From Candidatus Poribacteria bacterium (GTDB taxonomy: Bacteria; Poribacteria; WGA-4E; WGA-3G): DNA of 64,000 nt. The notes under the pieces are model-generated. The model worked only from the letters and a program-made list of their open reading frames with translations. It made no database searches and was not told where the DNA came from. Positions 953 to 23,095 of the stretch are shown here, piece after piece (the first letter of the stretch is position 1; each line of letters begins with the position of its first letter). The stretch lies in the NCBI GenBank assembly GCA_965197475.1, contig CBDANF010000002.1, positions 1,120,001-1,184,000 on the forward strand, read 5' to 3'. The position numbers and the translations under genes were made by a program.

Positions 953-2437
953 ATGAAGGTTTTTGCATTGTTTTTGAGTGTACTAATGATAGTGGCATTT
1001 ATAGGTGGATGTGATGAAGGAATGGATATGATGAAACCAGCAATGGAAGATCATACCGCACCAAAATCACCAATGGAACCTGAAGCAAAACCGCCAGTAG
1101 ACCCAGGGATGATGGGTGGTATGAAAAAACCAGAAGAACCCACAACACCCGATCAGGATCTTGAACCACCAGCAGTAACAGAAGTCACCTATTACACCGA
1201 TCAACAGCTGACTACTGAACTGACAGGCACCGTCGAAGAAGGGACGACAATATATACCAAAATAATATTTTCTGAGCCGATGCAGTTTGTTGTCTCAGAC
1301 AACAAAAACGCACGGCCAGTAATAAGTTTTGTAATAGAAAGCAAGGCAGCCCGATTTCAAGTGAAACCACACGACACATCTGAGAAAAATTTCAAAAGCG
1401 GTGACTGCAAACCGCTTGGAAATAGCACTAACGAATTCATTTGTAAATACACAACACAAGCAGACGATGACGGTGTATTTGCTATACAAGTCGACAGTGT
1501 CAATGCGGACAAGAGTGGCAACACACTTACCACTGATTACATAAGCGATGCTACTCTGATACTTCAGCCAGCAGAGATACAGGAAATGGGAGAGCCAGAT
1601 CCTGATGATCAACCGGTACGCCCGGGTGAATCCGCTCTGTCCGAAGAGGAAGCACGGGAAAAGGCCCATGGGATTGCACGGGAACTGTATCCGCTGTACG
1701 TGGAGGCAAGAAGAACAGGAAGGCGCGAACTGTACGAAAAACGCAATACGGCATTCAAGGAAAAAACAGGGCTTGAATTCGCACCCCTCGTACGAGCACT
1801 CGGAAAAATACAGCGTCAAGAAGATCCGACAGCCAAAGAGTTCTACGCAATGGGAAAGAATTCTCCCATGCAAATGATCGCCGAGTACCTGTATCTTTTC
1901 TATCGGTACCCGGAAAAAACAGAAGCCGAACTCCTTGAACTCTTCCGCCAGGCAGCACGAAACGGAGCAACAACCGTAGACAGAGAACAAGTCAAACTTC
2001 TTTTCGAAGAACCTCCGGATCCGCTCTATGAAGAAGCAAAGCGCATATCGGAGCGTCTGTTCCATATCTACGGTGATCTATGGAAAAAAGAGCTTGAAAA
2101 CCCATCACCTGACTTCCTCACAACCGTGAGCGAAGCGTTTGTGGAGGAAACAGGCATTGCGTGGTTTACTAGCACCCTGGTATTCGACCATCTTCCGAAT
2201 TGGTACCTACTTGAACACCCAGAGGACAAAGAATACCTGAAAATTGTCAGAACTTACGGAGAACAAGCAAAAATACTTGTTACAGAATTCCTCTATGTCA
2301 TTTTCAGCCACCCGGAAGAGAATGTTCTGTGGGTACTGCTTGACCCACATTTCAGAGAACATGTGCGGAACAAGGACCTCTTTGATGAGACGAGAATACA
2401 AAATGGAGAGTACGTTGTTGAAGAAGAATATTATTGA
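953..2437 (+). CDS. Putative lipoprotein with Pro-rich linker, Ig-like beta domain and duplicated helical C-terminal domain
   Basis: 494-aa ORF, RBS AGGAGG, lipobox-like FIGGC, repeated 'EYLYLF..YPE / EFLYVIF.HPE' motif. Confidence 0.75.
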   Translation: MKVFALFLSVLMIVAFIGGCDEGMDMMKPAMEDHTAPKSPMEPEAKPPVDPGMMGGMKKPEEPTTPDQDLEPPAVTEVTYYTDQQLTTELTGTVEEGTTIYTKIIFSEPMQFVVSDNKNARPVISFVIESKAARFQVKPHDTSEKNFKSGDCKPLGNSTNEFICKYTTQADDDGVFAIQVDSVNADKSGNTLTTDYISDATLILQPAEIQEMGEPDPDDQPVRPGESALSEEEAREKAHGIARELYPLYVEARRTGRRELYEKRNTAFKEKTGLEFAPLVRALGKIQRQEDPTAKEFYAMGKNSPMQMIAEYLYLFYRYPEKTEAELLELFRQAARNGATTVDREQVKLLFEEPPDPLYEEAKRISERLFHIYGDLWKKELENPSPDFLTTVSEAFVEETGIAWFTSTLVFDHLPNWYLLEHPEDKEYLKIVRTYGEQAKILVTEFLYVIFSHPEENVLWVLLDPHFREHVRNKDLFDETRIQNGEYVVEEEYY

Positions 2438-2458
2438 CATCTCACGTACTGATCAACC

Positions 2459-2493
2459 AAAACGACCTGTGTAGTACAACACAGGTCGTTTTT
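2459..2493 (+). terminator. Rho-independent terminator
   Basis: AAAACGACCTGTGT-agtaca-ACACAGGTCGTTTTT just after the stop at 2437. Confidence 0.8.
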
Positions 2494-2743
2494 CTATACC
2501 CAACACAGCATCACTGCATTGTTACCCACAAACATGCTTTACGTACAGACATCATCTGCAGAAAATGCGAATAATACCAAATTGACGAGATTTGTCTTAT
2601 TTTTCTGGGCAGACAGCGCGTTTACATGGAGATTAAGTATTTAAATCGGTAATCCAAGGCCCGGTAGGTGCAGTTTCATGAAGTTTGCGCTACAAATGCA
2701 GATAAGGAATTTGACGGTAAACCGCACCAGTTTTCAAAATTGT

Positions 2744-2864
2744 CAGGACGGACGCATTCCCCCTTGATAAGGGGGGTTAGGGGGGTTAAATAAGCAGAAT
2801 TTTGGTATTTTAACCCCCTAACCCCCTTATCAGGGGGACTTTAAGAGAAAATGCGTAAGTCCTG
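2744..2864. mobile_element. MITE family A, copy 2
   Basis: TIRs CAGGACGGACGCA / TGCGTAAGTCCTG, TSD ATTGT. Confidence 0.9.
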
Positions 2865-3006
2865 ATTGTTATACCAAGCTCACGTTAAAACTAAATAATC
2901 CTGGGAAACTAAATTTCCGTATTGTGTGTATTCAACAATTATGCTATAATCCCACTATATCTGATAAATAATACCATTTCTAATTGACAAATTGTCATAA
3001 CATATT

Positions 3007-3361
3007 GTAGGTCGGGTTGAGCTTGCGAAACCCGACATGGCACTATAAAAAGTCGGGTTTCGCTATCGCTTCTACCTGGCCTACGAAATAATAGACATTA
3101 TAATGATTTAATCGTCCGTCCCTGATATCACTAAGACCGAAATATAGTCTAAACGCTAATGGCTTGTCCGTCGGGTAGAGTTTGCGAAACCCGACATGTT
3201 TGTTCTGAATGTCAAGTGTTCAGATGGTGGAAGTTACCGTTTTATAGATTGCGAAATCTCCTATATTATCTCTGGAACCCTGATATTGTCGGGTTGAGCT
3301 TGCGAAACCCGACATGGCACTATAAAAAGTCGGGTTTCGCTATCGCTTCTACCTGGCCTAC
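3007..3361. repeat. Two near-identical GTAG-type REP doublets (3007-3084 and 3288-3361)
   Basis: GTCGGGTTGAGCTTGCGAAACCCGAC...GTCGGGTTTCGCTATCGCTTCTACCTGGCCTAC occurs twice. Confidence 0.8.
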
Positions 3362-3394
3362 GAAATAATGTAGAGCGTATCTCATAAATCTTAT

Positions 3395-3471
3395 GTAGGA
3401 CGAGGTCTCTGGGTTTCCTCGTCATGTCTTGAGAACGGAAACAACGGGCGGGCACAGAGACCCGCCCCTAC
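3395..3471. repeat. GTAG-type REP doublet inside ATCTCATAAATC/GATTTATGAGAT inverted repeats
   Basis: GTAGGACGAGG...GGGCGGGCACAGAGACCCGCCCCTAC. Confidence 0.6.
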
Positions 3472-3624
3472 GATGAAGTTGGATTCTCTGAAGGGAAACG
3501 TGTTTAACGATTTATGAGATAGACTGTAGTATTATCATATAGAAATGGTATAACATCTATAACAGATTATTCTAATTCCCTCTGCTAACGTGGCACTGGG
3601 GAAATATCCATAAGGAGCAAAATT

Positions 3625-14488: not shown

Positions 14489-15637
14489 ATGAAAACTGTC
14501 TTGAAAGAAATCATAACAAGCCGAACTGTTATCGTAACCTTCATTGGCTGCCTGATATTTTTAGGCACACTACAACTATTAGTCGTCAAAGGGTGTAATA
14601 ATGAAGCTGGCAAAAGTATAATAAATGAGCTGCATCCATATATATCGGAAGCAGACCTACATTCAACCGAACCGATAGCAGTTCCGCCTTTTCCTGAACC
14701 CTCACTGGAGGGACTTGTGGCACAACTGAAAGCGGAACTTGGGCTTACCGATGCTGAGATAGCAGAGACTGCGGAACTTATAGCGAAAGAACGCGTACTT
14801 GACATCGTAAACTACATGGACAGTCGCCGTGGTCCCGAAGCGAGGCAGGTTGCGTGGGAACAACGTAAGCGACTCGCTGTTGCGAAACCTGAACTGCTAT
14901 GGACACCCGGCTTCGTCTTACCTCCCACACTTGATGTAATGGAGCTAAGAGATACATCTTTATATAACTACAACACGAAAGAAGGGGACGATTTTACAGT
15001 CACCGAAGAACAAAACCAAAGAATTTATGATCTGCGAGGCCAAGCACAGAGAGGTGAAATTTCTTCGGAAGAATATCGTAGAGAAGGCGGGAAAATTCAG
15101 GTGGAGAACCTTGATCCCCTAACCGCTGCGAAGCATTTTCTAACATATTCAAGCGTAGGTTCCATAAAGGCAGAACTTGGCATTGAATACGCCGAGCGCG
15201 CCATTAATGAAAACCCCAATTCTTTTGAGGCACATCATGTCTGGACATTCTGCAACCGCATGTTCTATTTGGGAACAGACAACGAGAAAGTGATAGCAGG
15301 GTACCGCAATCTGGTTGACAGATTCCCGAATTCCTCCATTGCACTTCAAGATCTGAGTTGGGCACTGTATCATTTGTATTCGGGCCCGGATTTGTATGCC
15401 TACCCAGAGGAGGCACTCGATGCTGTCCAACGCGCAATTCAACTTGATGACCGCATTGAACGAAATAATCAATTATTAGCTCGTAGTTATCATAAACTCG
15501 GGGAATATGAAAAAGCACTTGCTGTTTACCAAGGAATGTCCGAAGTATTCTATGGTCACGCAGGTGGGCTTCTCACACCTATTTATGAGCTTCAACGCAA
15601 AGTTTACAATCAACGGCAGCAACAACAAGGCGAATAA
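14489..15637 (+). CDS. Membrane-anchored TPR protein, paralog 1
   Basis: N-terminal TM helix; TPR-like helices 'YAERAINENP', 'EEALDAVQRAIQLD', 'LGEYEKALAVY'. Confidence 0.85.
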   Translation: MKTVLKEIITSRTVIVTFIGCLIFLGTLQLLVVKGCNNEAGKSIINELHPYISEADLHSTEPIAVPPFPEPSLEGLVAQLKAELGLTDAEIAETAELIAKERVLDIVNYMDSRRGPEARQVAWEQRKRLAVAKPELLWTPGFVLPPTLDVMELRDTSLYNYNTKEGDDFTVTEEQNQRIYDLRGQAQRGEISSEEYRREGGKIQVENLDPLTAAKHFLTYSSVGSIKAELGIEYAERAINENPNSFEAHHVWTFCNRMFYLGTDNEKVIAGYRNLVDRFPNSSIALQDLSWALYHLYSGPDLYAYPEEALDAVQRAIQLDDRIERNNQLLARSYHKLGEYEKALAVYQGMSEVFYGHAGGLLTPIYELQRKVYNQRQQQQGE

Positions 15638-16121
15638 TGTCAAAGAGAAACAGAAACCGTAACAATCAGGAAAGTGTAGTGCTTTGTCAAGTTTATATTT
15701 ATGGGTACAAGCCGCGATTAGAAGATCGCTTCTACAGAACCTGAAAAGTAGGAAGGAACTCCGATTCCCGACTATGTCACGACTCACCATTTGAAAGTGG
15801 ACATAACAGTAGAGGTTTTTAATACTAACCGCCACTGCCACTACAATATCTTTTATATTATTACAAAAAGGAATTTAAACATGCCAAAAACTATAACTTT
15901 ACGCAATAAGTAGTTTTGGACTTGCAAAAAACATGTGAAAAAGTGTGATAAACCCTTGTGTAGACAAGGTTTATATGGTATAATATAGATAAGAAAAAAG
16001 GGAGGTTGTAGCCTCCCAATTAACCCAAAAAGCAGAGTTGCTTTCTGAAGGTTCTAATCTTATCTGATATTATATCAGAAATCCGTCAGAAAAAGCAACT
16101 CCTATTTCAAGGAGTTATCTG

Positions 16122-17003
16122 ATGGATTTAATCAAGGTCATGGAACGTTTCCCCGATCAAGAGAGTTGTATTGCACATTTAGAGAAGATTCGTTGGCGAG
16201 GTAAACCTGTGTGTCCGCATTGTGAAAGCGATCATATAGGAGAACGGACAGAAACAGAAATCGGTCGTATCGGTCGTTGGAACTGCCACGAGTGCCAAGT
16301 GAGTTTCAAGGTGACGTGCAGGTCGGTGTTTCACGGGACAAAGATAGCGTTACAGAAGTGGTTTTTGGCTATTTCGTTGATAACGAATGCGAAGAAAAGT
16401 TTGTCAAGGCATCAACTGGCGCGCGATTTAGACTTGAATCAAAAGACAGCATGGTTTATGATGGCACGTATTCGTGCTGAAATGGCAAAGAAAGGCGGGG
16501 CTTTACTACAAGGTATCATTGAAGCAGATGAGACCTATATTGGCGGTAAACCTCGTAAAAAGAACAAACGTGAAGATGATGAACCACATAAACGTGGCAG
16601 AGGAACGGAGAAAACTGCTATAATAGGAGCAGTGCAACGTGGGGGTAGGGTTGTCGCACAGGTGGCACATAACCTCACAGGACGCACTATCCTTGAGTTT
16701 ATTCGGAGTGCTGTAAACCTAAAGGACTCGGAACTAATAACCGATGAGTATCAGGCTTACAACGCTATTGGAAAGGAAATGAAGCACGCTGTTATCAACC
16801 ACAAGGTGCAGTTTGCTGATGGTGATACACATACAAACACGATTGAAGGGTTCTGGTCACTACTCAAACGGGCTTGGTATGGACAGCATCACCATTATCA
16901 GACAGGATACACACCGCTGTATGTGGCGGAAGCGTGCTATAAGTATAACTATAGGAGCGTTGACAGCTTGTTTGTCAAGTTTGTCAACGAAAGTATGTTG
17001 TGA
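16122..17003 (+). CDS. IS1595-family transposase
   Basis: Zn ribbon CPHC...CHEC, 'EADETYIGG', 'ITDEYQAY', 'HTNTIEGFWSLLKR'. Confidence 0.95.
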   Translation: MDLIKVMERFPDQESCIAHLEKIRWRGKPVCPHCESDHIGERTETEIGRIGRWNCHECQVSFKVTCRSVFHGTKIALQKWFLAISLITNAKKSLSRHQLARDLDLNQKTAWFMMARIRAEMAKKGGALLQGIIEADETYIGGKPRKKNKREDDEPHKRGRGTEKTAIIGAVQRGGRVVAQVAHNLTGRTILEFIRSAVNLKDSELITDEYQAYNAIGKEMKHAVINHKVQFADGDTHTNTIEGFWSLLKRAWYGQHHHYQTGYTPLYVAEACYKYNYRSVDSLFVKFVNESML

Positions 17004-17233
17004 GAGAAGTTAGAGATTCTATGGCAGATGTATTGAGTCAGCACGGACTAGATAAGAAAAGTGATAGTCCTTCAAGATCTGCTCTTTCTGAAACAGAATT
17101 CTTTGAAGAATTTTGTATCGTTGCTGAATATTTCATCGATGCATTTCACAGGTATGTTGAAGAATTCAGGACTGCCGATAATGTTCCTCAGACAAAACAT
17201 TCTGGGAAAACAAGTGAGCTTGACACCGGTTGA
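17000..17233 (+). CDS. Small hypothetical passenger protein
   Basis: 77-aa ORF overlapping the transposase stop (GTGA). Confidence 0.4.
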   Translation: MREVRDSMADVLSQHGLDKKSDSPSRSALSETEFFEEFCIVAEYFIDAFHRYVEEFRTADNVPQTKHSGKTSELDTG

Positions 17234-17438
17234 GTGCGTCCATAAAATTATCAAAAGTGGTTAACATTTCCTCTTTTGATTTGAATTCTAACACCATTTT
17301 TGCGCGTTCTTTGTGATGTATGTAGATGTAGAAACTACTTTTTGCGCTTATGTGGCGTTCTTCAGTTTCAATTCTCTGACACATAGCCAAGTTTAATGCT
17401 TTTCTTTCATTATTTTCGGTATATTCAACGAAAAACAT
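17166..17438 (-). CDS. Hypothetical passenger protein
   Basis: 90-aa ORF preceded by RBS AGGAG. Confidence 0.6.
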   Translation of the reverse strand: MFFVEYTENNERKALNLAMCQRIETEERHISAKSSFYIYIHHKERAKMVLEFKSKEEMLTTFDNFMDALNRCQAHLFSQNVLSEEHYRQS

Positions 17439-17493
17439 GATTTTAATCTCCTTTGGAGTTAGAGGGGACAGGGTCCCCTCGTTGTCAGAGTTG

Positions 17494-17868
17494 TTATAAG
17501 TATTCGGGGATTACTTCTGACACGCTGGTTATTGCTACAGCAATAGATAGTTCACTCTTTAAGCTCCATGTCGAGCATATAAGTGAGACAACAATCATAC
17601 GTAAACCAAAAGGTTCAGATGGTTCACCAAGAGTTGCTGTATGCAAAATGCATTCGGTAAATTCATCGCGCTTTTCATTGGGCACACCAAAGGTGAGAGC
17701 AAACCCTCTAATAATCGTTTCATACAATTGCTTTTTGGGAGTATCAGAAGGGTTTAGATCACGCAAGGTTTCATAATGTGTCAATGCAAGACGAGGGAAT
17801 TCCCTTATAAGCCACTTATCTCTATCTTTGTGTTTCCTGCGTTCTTTCCAATCTGAAAACAAAGACAT
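17494..17868 (-). CDS. Hypothetical passenger protein
   Basis: 124-aa ORF preceded by RBS AAGGAG. Confidence 0.65.
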   Translation of the reverse strand: MSLFSDWKERRKHKDRDKWLIREFPRLALTHYETLRDLNPSDTPKKQLYETIIRGFALTFGVPNEKRDEFTECILHTATLGEPSEPFGLRMIVVSLICSTWSLKSELSIAVAITSVSEVIPEYL

Positions 17869-17989
17869 AATAGTCTCCTTGTGTAAAAGGGAGTGGTTTC
17901 AGCGATGTAATAAGCTAAATGCAAAGCGATTATTATGTCGCTGATTCTATAAATATGATGTTAACTGTTTGGTTCACGAGAACTATACA

Positions 17990-18072
17990 CACGAAACTTT
18001 CCAATGTTACTTGGTTATGGTAGAGACCGCGCCTTGCGACGCGGGTAACATTCTCTACCAAAGTTTTCGTGA
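17990..18072 (-). ncRNA. Candidate pseudoknotted structured RNA
   Basis: Manual fold: three stems, GCAA tetraloop, 6-bp bulge-loop pseudoknot; begins just below a sigma70-like promoter. Confidence 0.55.
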
Positions 18073-18079
18073 TGTTAAT

Positions 18080-18108
18080 AGGATACTATACTGGCAGGAT
18101 TTTGTCAA
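18080..18108 (-). promoter_or_regulatory. Sigma70-like promoter driving the passenger operon
   Basis: TTGACA-17 nt-TATCCT on the minus strand. Confidence 0.6.
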
Positions 18109-18203
18109 GTAAAAAATTTGAGAAAAATTTTCAAGTCCAAAACTACTCATTGCGTAACTTTATGTCTAACACTTGTCACTGAGTAGAAAATGGATATATC
18201 TTA

Positions 18204-18326
18204 CAGGACGGACGCATTCCCCCTTGATAAGGGGGGTTAGGGGGGTTAAATAAGCAGAATTTTGGTATTTTAACCCCCTAAATCCCCCTTATCAGCGGGA
18301 CTTTAAGAGGAAATGCGTCCGTCCTG
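18204..18326. mobile_element. MITE family A, copy 5
   Basis: TIRs present, TSD TCTTA. Confidence 0.9.
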
Positions 18327-18445
18327 TCTTAGTTTTCATAGAAACACGATAAATGCTGGGACAACCGCAGGGTGCTAATTTTTCACGTGATAAAAAAGAG
18401 AAACGTGGTATAATTTACTAAAATCAAAAATGCGGAGGAATTCCC

Positions 18446-19594
18446 ATGAAAACCTTCTTGAAAGAAATCATAATGAGTCGTCCTGTGATTATTACCTTCA
18501 TTGGCTGCCTACTCTTTTTCGGATCGCTTCTACTTTTTGTAATCAAAGGGTGTAATAATGAAGCTGGCAAGAGTATAATAAACGAGATCCATCCATATAT
18601 ATCGGAAGCAGACCTACGTTCGACCGAACCGATAGCAGTTGCGCCTTTTCCTGAACCCTCACTGGAGGGACTTGTGGCACAACTGAAAGCGGAACTTGGG
18701 CTTACCGATGCTGAGATAGCAGAGACTGCGGAACTTATAGCGAAAGAACGCGAACTTGACATCGTAAACTACATGGACAGTCGCCGTGGCGTAGCAGCGA
18801 GGCAGACTGCGTGGGAACAACGTAAGCGACTCGCTGTTGCGAAACCTGAACTTCTATGGACCCCCGGTTTCGTCTTACCGCCCGCACTTGATGTGATGGA
18901 GTTAAGAGATATATCTTTATATAACTACGATACGAAAGCGGGGGACGATTTCACAATTACCTCAGAACAACGGCAAAGAATGTCTAACCTGCGAAGCCAA
19001 GCACAGAGAGGTGAAATTTCTGATGAAGAATATAGTAGAGAAGCTGGGAAAATTGCGGTTGAGAACCTTGATCCCTTAACTGCTGCAAAGCATTTTCTAA
19101 CGCATGCAGGCGTAGGTTCCATAGATGCTGAACTCGGTATTGAATACGCCGAGCGCGCCATTAATGAAAACCCCGATTCCTTTGAGGCACATCATGTCTG
19201 GACATTCTGCAACCGCATGTTCTATTTGGGAACAGACAACGAGAAAGTGATAGCAGGGTACCGCAATCTGGTTGACAGATTCCCGAATTCCTCCATTGCA
19301 CTTCAAGATCTGAGTTGGGCACTGTATCATTTGTATTCGGGCCCGGATTTGTATGCCTACCCAGAGGAGGCACTCGATGCTGTCCAACGCGCAATTCAAC
19401 TTGATGACCGCATTGAACGAAATAATCAATTATTAGCTCGTAGTTATCATAAACTCGGGGAATATGAAAAAGCACTTGCTGTTTACCAAGGAATGTCCGA
19501 AGTATTCTATGGTCGCGCAGGTGGGCTTCTCACACCTATTTATGAGCTTCAACGCAAAGTTTACAATCAACGGCAGCAACAACAAGGCGAATAA
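18446..19594 (+). CDS. Membrane-anchored TPR protein, paralog 2
   Basis: 382 aa, closely similar to paralog 1; RBS GGAGG. Confidence 0.85.
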   Translation: MKTFLKEIIMSRPVIITFIGCLLFFGSLLLFVIKGCNNEAGKSIINEIHPYISEADLRSTEPIAVAPFPEPSLEGLVAQLKAELGLTDAEIAETAELIAKERELDIVNYMDSRRGVAARQTAWEQRKRLAVAKPELLWTPGFVLPPALDVMELRDISLYNYDTKAGDDFTITSEQRQRMSNLRSQAQRGEISDEEYSREAGKIAVENLDPLTAAKHFLTHAGVGSIDAELGIEYAERAINENPDSFEAHHVWTFCNRMFYLGTDNEKVIAGYRNLVDRFPNSSIALQDLSWALYHLYSGPDLYAYPEEALDAVQRAIQLDDRIERNNQLLARSYHKLGEYEKALAVYQGMSEVFYGRAGGLLTPIYELQRKVYNQRQQQQGE

Positions 19595-20142: not shown

Positions 20143-21291
20143 ATGAAAACTGTCTTGAAAGAAATCATAATGAGCCGTCCTGTTATTATTACCTTCATTG
20201 GCTGCCTACTCTTTTTCGGTTCACTGCTGCTTTTTGTAATCAAAGGGTGTAATAATGAAGCTGGCAAAAGTATAATAAACGAGATCCATCCCTATATATC
20301 GGAAGCAGACCTTAACTCAACTGAACCGATAGCAGTTGCGCCTTTTCCTGAACCCTCACTGGAGGGACTTGTGGCACAACTGAAAGCGGAACTTGGGCTT
20401 ACCGATGCGGAGATAGCAGCGGATGCGGAACTTATAGCGAAAGAACGCGAACTTGACATCGTAAACTACATGGACAGTCGCCGTGGTTCCGAAGCGAGGC
20501 AGGCTGCGTGGGAACAACGTAAGCGACTCGCTGTTGCGAAACCTGAACTGCTATGGACACCCGGCTTCGTCTTACCGCCCGCACTTGATGTAATGGAGTT
20601 AAAAGATATATCTTTATATAACTACGATACGAAACAAGGTGAAGATTTTACAATCACCTCAGAACAACAGCAAAGAATCTATGAACAGCGAGACAAAGCA
20701 AGGAGAGATGAAATTTCTTCGGAAGAATCTCGTAGAGAAGCTGGGAAAATTCGGGTGGAGAACCTTGATCCCTTAACTGCTGCGAAGCATTTTCTAACAT
20801 ATTCAGGCGTAGGTTCCGTAAACGCAGAACTCGGTATTGAATACGCCGAGCGCGCCATTAATGAAAACCCCGATTCCTTTGAGGCACATCATGTCTGGAC
20901 ATTCTGCAACCGCATGTTCTATTTGGGAACAGACAACGAGAAAGTGATAGCAGGGTACCGCAATCTGGTTGACAGATTCCCGAATTCCTCCATTGCACTT
21001 CAAGATCTGAGTTGGGCACTGTATCATTTGTATTCGGGCCCGGATTTGTATGCCTACCCAGAGGAGGCACTCGATGCTGTCCAACGCGCAATTCAACTTG
21101 ATGACCGCATTGAACGAAATAATCAATTATTAGCTCGTTGTTATCATAATCTTGGCGAGTATGAAAAAGCACTTGCTGTTTACCAAGGGATGTCCGAAGT
21201 ATACTATGGTCATGGTGGGGGTCTTCTCACACCTATTTATCAGCTGCAACGCAAAGTTTACAATCAACGGCAGCAACAACAAGGCGAATAA
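20143..21291 (+). CDS. Membrane-anchored TPR protein, paralog 3
   Basis: 382-aa paralog. Confidence 0.85.
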   Translation: MKTVLKEIIMSRPVIITFIGCLLFFGSLLLFVIKGCNNEAGKSIINEIHPYISEADLNSTEPIAVAPFPEPSLEGLVAQLKAELGLTDAEIAADAELIAKERELDIVNYMDSRRGSEARQAAWEQRKRLAVAKPELLWTPGFVLPPALDVMELKDISLYNYDTKQGEDFTITSEQQQRIYEQRDKARRDEISSEESRREAGKIRVENLDPLTAAKHFLTYSGVGSVNAELGIEYAERAINENPDSFEAHHVWTFCNRMFYLGTDNEKVIAGYRNLVDRFPNSSIALQDLSWALYHLYSGPDLYAYPEEALDAVQRAIQLDDRIERNNQLLARCYHNLGEYEKALAVYQGMSEVYYGHGGGLLTPIYQLQRKVYNQRQQQQGE

Positions 21292-21813: not shown

Positions 21814-21970
21814 ATCTTTATGTTACCACAAAAAGGAGTTTAATCATGTCAAAAACTATAATTTTTTGTTTAACTTTCTTACTTATCGGTATTTTGCTAT
21901 AATATCCCATACGCATTCACAAACATTGAAGTTATCACCTCATCTGTACCACAAAAAAGGAGAAATTCAC

Positions 21971-23095
21971 ATGAAAACTGTCTTGAAAGAAATCATAATG
22001 AGTCGTCCTGTTATTATTACCTTCATTGGCTGCCTACTCTTTTTCGGTTCACTGCTGCTTTTTGTAATCAAAGGGTGTAATAATGAAGCTGGCAAGAGTA
22101 TAATAAACGAGATCCATCCCTATATATCGGAAGCAGACCTTAACTCAACCGAACCGATAGCAGTTCCGCCTTTTCCTGAACCCTCACTGGAGGGACTTGT
22201 GGCACAACTGAAAGCGGAACTTGGGCTTACCGATGCGGAGATAGCAGCGGATGCGGAACTTATAGCGAAAGAACGCGAACTTGACATCGTAAACTACATG
22301 GACAGTCGCCGTGGTTCCGAAGCGAGGCAGGCTGCGTGGGAACAACGTAAGCGACTCGCTGTTGCGAAACCTGAACTGCTATGGACACCCGGCTTCGTCT
22401 TACCGCCCGCACTTGATGTAATGGAGTTAAGAGATATATCTTTATATAACTACGATACGAAACAAGGTGAAGATTTTACAATTACCTCAGAACAACGGCA
22501 AAGAATGTCTAACCTGCGAAACCAAGCACAGAGAGGTGAAATTTCTGATGAAGAATATAGTAGAGAAGCTGGGAAAATTCGGGTTGAGAACCTTGATCCC
22601 TTAACTGCTGCGAAGTATTTTCTAACATATTCAAGCGTAGGTTCCATAAAAGCAGAACTCGGTATTGAATACGCCGAGCGCGCCATTAATGAAAACCCCA
22701 ATTCCTTTGAGGCACATCATGTCTGGGCACTCTGCAACCGCGAGTATTATTTTCAAACAGACAATGAGAAAACAATAGAGGGGTTCCGCAATCTGGTTAA
22801 CAGATTTCCGAACTCCTCCATCGCACTTCAAGAACTTTGTTTGATAACCCGTTTCACCCACCCGGAGGAGGCACTTGATGCCGTCCAACGCGCAATTCAA
22901 CTTGATGACCGCATTGAACGAAATAATGAATTATTAGCTCATTGTTATCATAAACTCGGGGAATATGAGAAGGCACTTGCTGTTTACCAAGGAATGTCTG
23001 AAGTATACTATGGACACGGTGGTGGTCTTCTCACCTTTATTTATCAACTTCAACGCAAAGTTTACAATCAGCGGCAGCAACAACAAGGCGAATAA
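21971..23095 (+). CDS. Membrane-anchored TPR protein, paralog 4 (divergent TPR core)
   Basis: Start assigned by homology (MKTVLKEII) with RBS AGGAG; 8-aa deletion relative to the other paralogs. Confidence 0.85.
   Translation: MKTVLKEIIMSRPVIITFIGCLLFFGSLLLFVIKGCNNEAGKSIINEIHPYISEADLNSTEPIAVPPFPEPSLEGLVAQLKAELGLTDAEIAADAELIAKERELDIVNYMDSRRGSEARQAAWEQRKRLAVAKPELLWTPGFVLPPALDVMELRDISLYNYDTKQGEDFTITSEQRQRMSNLRNQAQRGEISDEEYSREAGKIRVENLDPLTAAKYFLTYSSVGSIKAELGIEYAERAINENPNSFEAHHVWALCNREYYFQTDNEKTIEGFRNLVNRFPNSSIALQELCLITRFTHPEEALDAVQRAIQLDDRIERNNELLAHCYHKLGEYEKALAVYQGMSEVYYGHGGGLLTFIYQLQRKVYNQRQQQQGE

Follow-up and report, generated by a model that had tools for sequence, protein, structure and literature searches.

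A new pseudoknotted RNA family with a repeated closing strand, the probable 5′ leader of mobile and defence genes in Candidatus Poribacteria

Introduction

Riboswitches of the purine class, such as the add adenine riboswitch, are three-way-junction aptamers that possess a distal tertiary contact and P1-coupled translational control. In the insertion sequence IS200, the tnpA leader forms a stem-loop in which the Shine-Dalgarno sequence is sequestered, and in PMC4513863 control through this leader is attributed to a plain stem-loop together with an antisense sRNA and Hfq. The homing-endonuclease genes of T-even phages are reported in PMC2988022 to carry hairpins that sequester the ribosome-binding site (RBS) and contain embedded late promoters; for T4, that paper describes relief via the promoter inside the hairpin.

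The RNA described here was read on the minus strand of a 64,000-nt stretch of Candidatus Poribacteria DNA (the window), to which all positions refer. The literature searched contained no description of an RNA motif in Poribacteria and nothing relevant on riboswitches or IS1595 passenger genes. The findings are best explained if this RNA is the 5′ leader of a cargo mRNA and belongs to a new promoter-proximal leader family, present in two families of Candidatus Poribacteria.

The IS1595 element and its RNA

The RNA lies within an IS1595-family element of 2253 bp (15902..18154), whose limits are given by four identical genomic copies that lose identity exactly at its ends. Both ends carry the 23-bp terminal inverted repeat CGCAAT(A/G)AGTAGTTTTGGACTTG and are flanked by 8-bp target duplications (15894-15901 and 18155-18162). 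The transposase (293 aa; 16122..17003, plus strand) matches DDE_Tnp_IS1595 at 2.5e-37, and its gene is convergent with the leader and cargo transcript. Strong minus-strand terminator-like hairpins are found only at 16000-16017 and 16096-16117, past the transposase start, and the cargo transcript could therefore run antisense across the whole transposase gene. An 11/12 promoter-like site on the plus strand (17220-17248) faces the leader from within the second cargo gene. The element sits between the first and second of four tandem paralogues of 382-409 aa (14489-15637, 18446-19594, 20143-21291, and 21866-23095), which show a weak C-terminal TPR signal below the Pfam cut-off.

The core RNA motif (17990..18071, minus strand) is defined by its fold, by covariation and by the two covariance models introduced below. 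It is closed by P1, in which the 5′ strand CACGAAAACUUU (18071-18060) pairs with the 3′ strand AAAGUUUCGUG (P1b; 18000-17990); these are 12 and 11 nt long, respectively, leaving a single A unpaired. P2 is formed by GGUAGAGA (18059-18052) and UCUCUACC (18026-18019) and is followed by the 7-nt bulge AUGUUAC (18051-18045) and by P2b (18044-18038 with 18033-18027), which bears a GCAA cap. AUAA constitutes the junction, and P3 (CCAA/UUGG) presents the loop GUAACA (18010-18005), which is exactly complementary to UGUUAC of the bulge (18050-18045) and forms with it a pseudoknot of 6 bp. RNAfold returned the same nested helices, with a free energy of -37.8 kcal/mol for 18071-17990 against -18.2 +/- 3.1 in 200 shuffles (z = -6.42), none of which was equally stable; the z-score of the whole 216-nt leader is -6.3. 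The closing stem, bulged stem, GNRA-capped stem and hairpin of the preliminary description are all present, as is the pseudoknotted RNA that it placed at about 85 nt, the length of which is corrected here to 82 nt. Positions 18071-17990 are a genuine structured RNA with a real pseudoknot.

A second hairpin occupies 17900..17943 of the same strand (about 17943-17900; -15.9 kcal/mol, z = -5.6) and has a conserved apical CUUUGCAUUU; the Shine-Dalgarno sequence of the 124-aa cargo open reading frame (ORF) lies after it. The long hairpin previously noted ahead of this RBS thus folds as claimed, but its support in relatives is weaker: three of four related leaders fold better than shuffles at this place, and RNAalifold found no consensus for the four. 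Its inner part (17942-17925) with a U-rich tail scores as a weak terminator-like site.

An RNA family of two poribacterial families

With Rfam 15 (4227 models), the whole window gave no match at the gathering score. At E <= 10, the region 15500-19000 gave seven matches, none of which overlaps 17990-18071, and at E <= 1 none was found at the motif in 17 diverse loci. The statement that no Rfam family was recognisable is thereby borne out.

The genome contains four identical copies of the window element (variant A), four of a variant B, and six of a third variant. Between variants A and B the inverted repeat, promoter and RNA are 86% identical and the transposase 92%; the homology stops at about 17969. 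In P1, P3 and the pseudoknot, the three variants of this one genome have diverged through matched changes, the bulge/loop pair being UGUUAC/GUAACA in A, UGUUAG/CUAACA in B, and UCUCAU/AUGAGA in the third. The four B copies (L005-L008) agree across a 2269-bp block in the copy comparison that also placed the element ends; in one of them (L005) both the transposase, which reads as ORFs of 204 and 74 aa, and the DUF805-like cargo, with ORFs of 92 and 77 aa, appear interrupted.

Variants A and B were used to build covariance model R1, which found the motif in 80 of 151 related genomes. Applied to a phylum-wide sample of 151 genomes, model R2, derived from 32 hits, was positive in 96, with about 358 matches in all. 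By family, R2 was found in 79/99 genomes of f1 and 16/26 of f3, and in 0/25 genomes of seven others; in this sample of 151 genomes the motif is confined to two families of its phylum. An exact-pattern scan of the genome collection yielded 13 stretches, 12 from Candidatus Poribacteria and one from an "uncultured bacterium." A looser pattern yielded four viral and 17 metagenome stretches, of which R2 confirmed three and five, respectively. Three IMG/VR contigs filed as viral (L093, L095, and L096) carry a GIY-YIG-type copy of the motif; the neighbouring ORFs on two viral contigs had no informative Pfam domains, and a BLAST search of the leader against GenBank phages and PLSDB plasmids gave no match.

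For covariation, 78 hits were aligned, 70 of them distinct. For the structure including the pseudoknot, paired cells make up 95.8% of the 2342, and both sides have changed in 31 of the 35 pairs, figures to be read in the light of an alignment that was fitted to the model and so favours the nested helices, and of related sequences that are not independent; the pseudoknot lay outside the model. None of 500 shuffles reached any of these measures, and slid controls were 35-45% paired. Pairing by helix was 90.3% for P1, 99.4% for P2, 99.0% for the pseudoknot, 99.6% for P2b, and 91.0% for P3, and the first 32 hits had given the same picture. With 99.0% of its cells paired and compensatory changes in five of its six pairs among the 70 homologues, the pairing of bulge and loop that the preliminary description had proposed is not due to chance.

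Invariance is seen at six positions in the GAGA/UCUC core of P2 and at the first pair of P2b, near-invariance at two pseudoknot pairs (U-A and A-U) and at the first two bases of the P2b loop (G and C). Few unpaired nucleotides are otherwise conserved across the family. G-U pairs occupy 118 of the 2342 cells, which indicates an RNA of the transcribed strand rather than a double-stranded DNA site. The motif is a new, strongly supported RNA family absent from Rfam 15, its covariation support being on par with that of accepted Rfam families, and it would give an uncultured phylum of sponge symbionts a regulatory RNA class of its own.

Promoter and transcript start

The sigma-70-type promoter that had been noted directly before the RNA, TTGACA-17-TATCCT, is present on the minus strand at 18080..18108, as judged by sequence reading and a promoter scan: its -35 box TTGACA (18108-18103), 17-nt spacer, and -10 box TATCCT (18085-18080) scored 10/12. 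Transcription is predicted to start near 18073 (A), 2 nt ahead of P1. An equivalent promoter (<=3 mismatches of 12) occurs at a fixed distance in 64 of the 70 distinct copies, as against 11% of 1400 control positions, and the median of 16 nt from promoter end to P2 in these 64 copies places it 4-6 nt before P1. From this constant spacing we infer that the motif is the extreme 5′ end of the transcript. The P3 loop and linker of the window are themselves promoter-like (9/12 in the scan). Such an embedded site (<=3 mismatches) was found inside the motif in one of 70 copies and is not conserved; a T4-style embedded promoter is rejected, given the 64/70 copies with a promoter ahead of P1.

Contigs identical to 17773-18110 were found in four sponge metatranscriptome runs from one study at a depth of 3-6; as contigs, they attest presence in RNA libraries only, and strand, ends and level cannot be read from them. 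On its upstream side they reach 22-37 nt beyond the predicted start, and the runs containing the window sequence are labelled sponge metagenome. Just beyond the IS end, at 18220-18340, lies a long G5/C5-rich palindromic repeat with only weak miRNA-like Rfam matches. In the same four runs the bin 18252-18335 has a summed contig depth of 2400-3600, compared with 3-15 over the IS.

A repeated copy of the P1 3′ strand

The preliminary description does not mention that the P1 3′ strand is present twice. In the window, the core is followed on the minus strand by the linker UGUAU (17989-17985) and by AGUUCUCGUG (17984-17975), here called P1b′, which is able to pair with the P1 5′ strand in place of P1b; the homology between variants A and B ends just past it. 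P1b was seen to recur a few bases downstream in the 32 hits first inspected, and there are few exceptions among the 70 distinct copies. P1b′ tracks P1 through all of its sequence changes, that is, it co-varies with the P1 5′ strand.

The window duplex of P1 5′ strand and P1b′ is worth -9.4 kcal/mol. Across the family, the mean pairing energy of the P1 5′ strand with the 35 nt that follow P1b is -9.55 kcal/mol, compared with -9.99 for P1b itself and with -3.68 +/- 2.29 kcal/mol for 690 cross-locus controls, which were downstream stretches of loci with unrelated P1. Pairing lies beyond the 5th percentile of the controls in 55 of 69 copies and does not exceed this threshold in 14. When P1b was blocked in folding, P1 re-formed with P1b′ and the core stayed intact. 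The median cost of this exchange is 3.0 kcal/mol (IQR 1.8-5.4, n = 69), and in three of ten displayed loci the two states lie within 0.4 kcal/mol. Nearest-neighbour energies, calculated with the pseudoknot ignored, favour P1 with P1b by default, which is the open state in the mechanism proposed below.

The position of P1b′ relative to the gene was determined in 36 loci where an ORF of at least 150 aa starts within 70 nt. It overlaps -13 to +2 of the start codon, and hence the Shine-Dalgarno sequence or the start codon, in 28 of these. In one TnpB lineage P1b′ covers the AUG (-5 to +4) and the purine-rich linker acts as the Shine-Dalgarno sequence, and in the other it lies over the Shine-Dalgarno position (-16 to -8). 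The eight exceptions have P1b′ 16-50 nt upstream of the start codon and are mostly of the GIY-YIG type and IS1595 cargo, five being GIY-YIG loci with P1b′ at -31 to -16. In the window, P1b′ ends in GUG and lies 106 nt ahead of the 124-aa ORF. At one locus (L064, 1420-1590, minus strand), one promoter and an IS1595-type end precede a tandem of two complete motif copies; the P1 helices of the two differ by one compensated change, and neither copy is followed by a repeated strand.

Downstream genes

The first cargo ORF of the window encodes an orphan of 124 aa (17494..17868, minus strand; Shine-Dalgarno AAGGAG, 17880-17875) with 21 relatives, none of which has a Pfam domain. Its predicted model consists of six helices (pLDDT 85) and gave no significant match among PDB folds (best E = 2.3). 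The second, an orphan of 90 aa (17166..17438, minus strand), has seven relatives, one of them named "hypothetical protein [Candidatus Poribacteria bacterium]," and is predicted to possess five strands and a C-terminal helix (pLDDT 76); here too, no PDB fold matched significantly (best E = 0.077). Pfam domains were found in neither protein, BLASTP against 2259 ORFs of the other loci revealed no relatives, and neither shows the marks of a toxin. In place of these two genes, variant B has a DUF805-like gene that is split and an unrelated ORF of 83 aa. Although the cargo ORFs on either side are unrelated in A and B, a 39-nt island (17447-17485) is 92% identical in the two; it comprises a hairpin, GAGGGGAC/GUCCCCUC, together with CUCC-AAA-GGAG immediately ahead of the second cargo ORF.

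Pfam analysis of 46 downstream ORFs identified TnpB (OrfB_IS605 plus Cas12f1-like TNB) in 16, GIY-YIG proteins in four, and DUF805 in two. A DNA methylase, an MvaI/BcnI endonuclease, a CAP12/Pycsar-type TIR protein, and a protein with an AbiJ N-terminal domain occur once each, the remainder being a few housekeeping enzymes and otherwise orphans. No common pathway or metabolic theme was found among the 46, unlike the situation with classical riboswitches. Four loci (L011, L013, L014, and L015) have a different second leader module 30-90 nt past the motif, before very basic small ORFs, with a conserved GUGCAUAACGCA...ACGCUAUGCAC inside a variable outer stem.

The RNA had been thought to be paired with the two small proteins of the window and to be spread by an IS. 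Neither tie is upheld: TnpB, GIY-YIG, methylase, TIR, AbiJ and DUF805 genes are served as well, sister IS1595 copies keep the RNA with different cargo, and the 200 nt upstream contain an IS1595-type inverted repeat in no more than 16 of the 70 copies, which is no constant association with IS1595 ends or transposase. The motif is a portable promoter-plus-leader module of mobilome and defence genes rather than a partner of these two ORFs. This one module could be common to RNA-guided nucleases, homing endonucleases, defence genes and transposon cargo.

Proposed mechanism and alternatives

Since P1b′ coincides with the ribosome-binding site or start codon in most loci, the leader is most likely a two-state translational switch acting in cis, in which the state of the core decides the partner strand; we put the probability of this reading at roughly 0.5. 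The compact core, held by the six-pair bulge-loop pseudoknot and closed by P1, would set where the P1 5′ strand sits. That strand would serve as an anti-start sequence with two nearly equivalent partners, P1b acting as a built-in decoy. When P1 forms with P1b, P1b′ would be single-stranded and the start region free; when it forms with P1b′, the start region would be masked. A ligand, protein, ion or temperature would presumably act on the core. The two states would interconvert in vivo and in this manner gate translation. In the window, P1b′ lies so far ahead of the 124-aa ORF that any effect there would need a relay, possibly the second hairpin or a short leader ORF with the GUG of P1b′ as its start.

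Of the properties associated with riboswitches, the family has a conserved, covariation-supported, aptamer-like fold in a 5′ leader, and a mutually exclusive pairing, P1b versus P1b′, that is linked to an expression signal in 28/36 loci. The 46 downstream ORFs share no pathway pointing to a ligand. Conserved unpaired nucleotides as few as these are unusual for a small-molecule pocket. Of the novel riboswitch, ribozyme or antitoxin suggested originally, a riboswitch-like switch is the best reading. We would more tentatively suggest, as a possibility rather than an expectation, a new riboswitch-like class in which unrelated genes of selfish or defence type (IS1595 cargo, TnpB, GIY-YIG endonucleases, restriction-modification, TIR and AbiJ) share a sensor of one host signal, read out by decoy-strand exchange: the sensor core would park the anti-start P1 5′ strand on its built-in decoy, and the freely varying P1 could also give each element an address of its own for inhibition between copies. 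The duplicated P1 strand offers a simple, testable design for gating translation. Being short, and having a promoter near the sigma-70 consensus (TTGACA-17-TATAAT), the module lends itself to tests in E. coli or in vitro that do not require growth of the host.

The first alternative is that the leader is passive, its stable 5′ fold protecting the mRNA from 5′-end-dependent decay or fixing a constant level of translation, with a spare strand that simply keeps the 5′ end paired or is a by-product. The motif does begin a few nucleotides from the predicted transcript start in 64/70 copies, it is very stable (z = -6.42), few of its unpaired bases are conserved, and a role of this kind would be compatible with any downstream gene. 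For protection, however, a simple hairpin would suffice; the invariant GAGA/UCUC helix, a pseudoknot paired in 99% of cells, and two equally maintained partner strands that overlap start regions exceed what protection would need, and we consider a passive leader unlikely.

A quite improbable alternative, control of copy number in trans, would have the leader or a processed 5′ fragment pair through its P1 5′ strand with the P1b′ of a sister copy, P1 being the address of the element. There is a precedent in that the IS200 5′ UTR is reportedly processed into regulatory RNAs (PMC5435999). The P1 5′ strand is antisense to start regions, and P1 differs among IS variants of one genome, cross-pairing being poor (-3.68 kcal/mol in the controls). 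Against this, the P1 5′ strand is occupied in cis in the predicted fold, no terminator or processing site bounds a short RNA save for the one weak terminator-like site at 17942-17925, and the motif is present in single-copy loci too.

Self-cleaving ribozymes are often found next to mobile genes, and a compact pseudoknotted junction with strongly conserved helix positions, adjoining such genes, might be one that trims the 5′ end or splits the leader from the mRNA, the repeated strand re-pairing the product. This is very improbable: no Rfam ribozyme family matched at the motif even at E <= 10, nearly all of the invariant bases reside in Watson-Crick helices rather than in a junction core, and a transcript beginning at P1 would have no upstream part to be trimmed.

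The location of the motif immediately after a strong promoter, its indifference to the downstream gene, and the placing of the next minus-strand terminator-like sites past the transposase gene (16117-16096 and 16017-16000) would also suit put-like processive antitermination, in which the RNA acts on RNA polymerase so that transcription proceeds through the cargo and antisense over the transposase gene; we allow this only a slight chance, for it leaves the spare strand and its overlap with the start codon unexplained. A type III antitoxin or Abi-like RNA neutralising small cargo proteins is scarcely credible, for although two orphan small ORFs follow in the window and one family member precedes an AbiJ-domain protein and another a TIR protein, TRF found no tandem repeat array in 15800-18500 (four 2-copy micro-repeats lie elsewhere there), the partner genes are unrelated across loci with no constant toxin among them, and neither window ORF resembles a known toxin fold.

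Comparison with known systems

The cis-acting switch proposed above can be set beside several described RNAs. As in the ZTP riboswitch, a pseudoknot joins two sub-domains, so that the resemblance drawn in the preliminary description stands in this respect, as does its view that the motif is not ZTP; the order of the helices differs, no Rfam model match was obtained even at E <= 10, and membership is rejected. ToxI-type type III antitoxins are likewise pseudoknotted small RNAs beside mobile or defence genes, but the present motif lies in a 5′ leader and in cis; with no tandem repeats found by TRF and no fixed toxin partner, it was rejected as a candidate. The motif is a member of none of the compared systems, lacking an Rfam match, an embedded promoter, an antisense partner, and tandem repeats.

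In architecture and logic, the nearest analogues appear to be three-way-junction riboswitches in which a distal tertiary contact is combined with translation coupled to P1. In common with the purine class, P1 closes a three-way junction in which two arms are tied at a distance, and alternative pairings of the P1 strand would free or hide the start region. Unlike these riboswitches, the motif has no Rfam match and a tiny junction, its contact is a 6-bp Watson-Crick bulge-loop pseudoknot, a duplicated P1 3′ strand takes the place of an anti-P1 sequence as its output, and it serves mobile and defence genes without a common metabolite.

In biology, the nearest analogues are the IS200 tnpA leader and the RBS hairpins of T-even homing-endonuclease genes. 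The former is similarly transposon-borne and pairs its own 5′ part with the ribosome-binding region, limiting translation; IS200 and the TnpB loci that carry the motif fall within one element superfamily. It differs in that our motif possesses a conserved pseudoknotted core and a decoy strand competing for the anti-start sequence, serves unrelated genes with the same module, and has no antisense partner. Unlike T4, where the promoter is placed inside the structure, the promoter precedes the whole motif in 64/70 copies, an internal promoter-like site occurring in 1/70. A 5′ arm complementary to the translation start region is, as in the T4 fold-back, present in 28 of 36 loci, and as in the T-even hairpins, selfish nuclease genes, GIY-YIG types included, would be silenced by RNA structure over the RBS.
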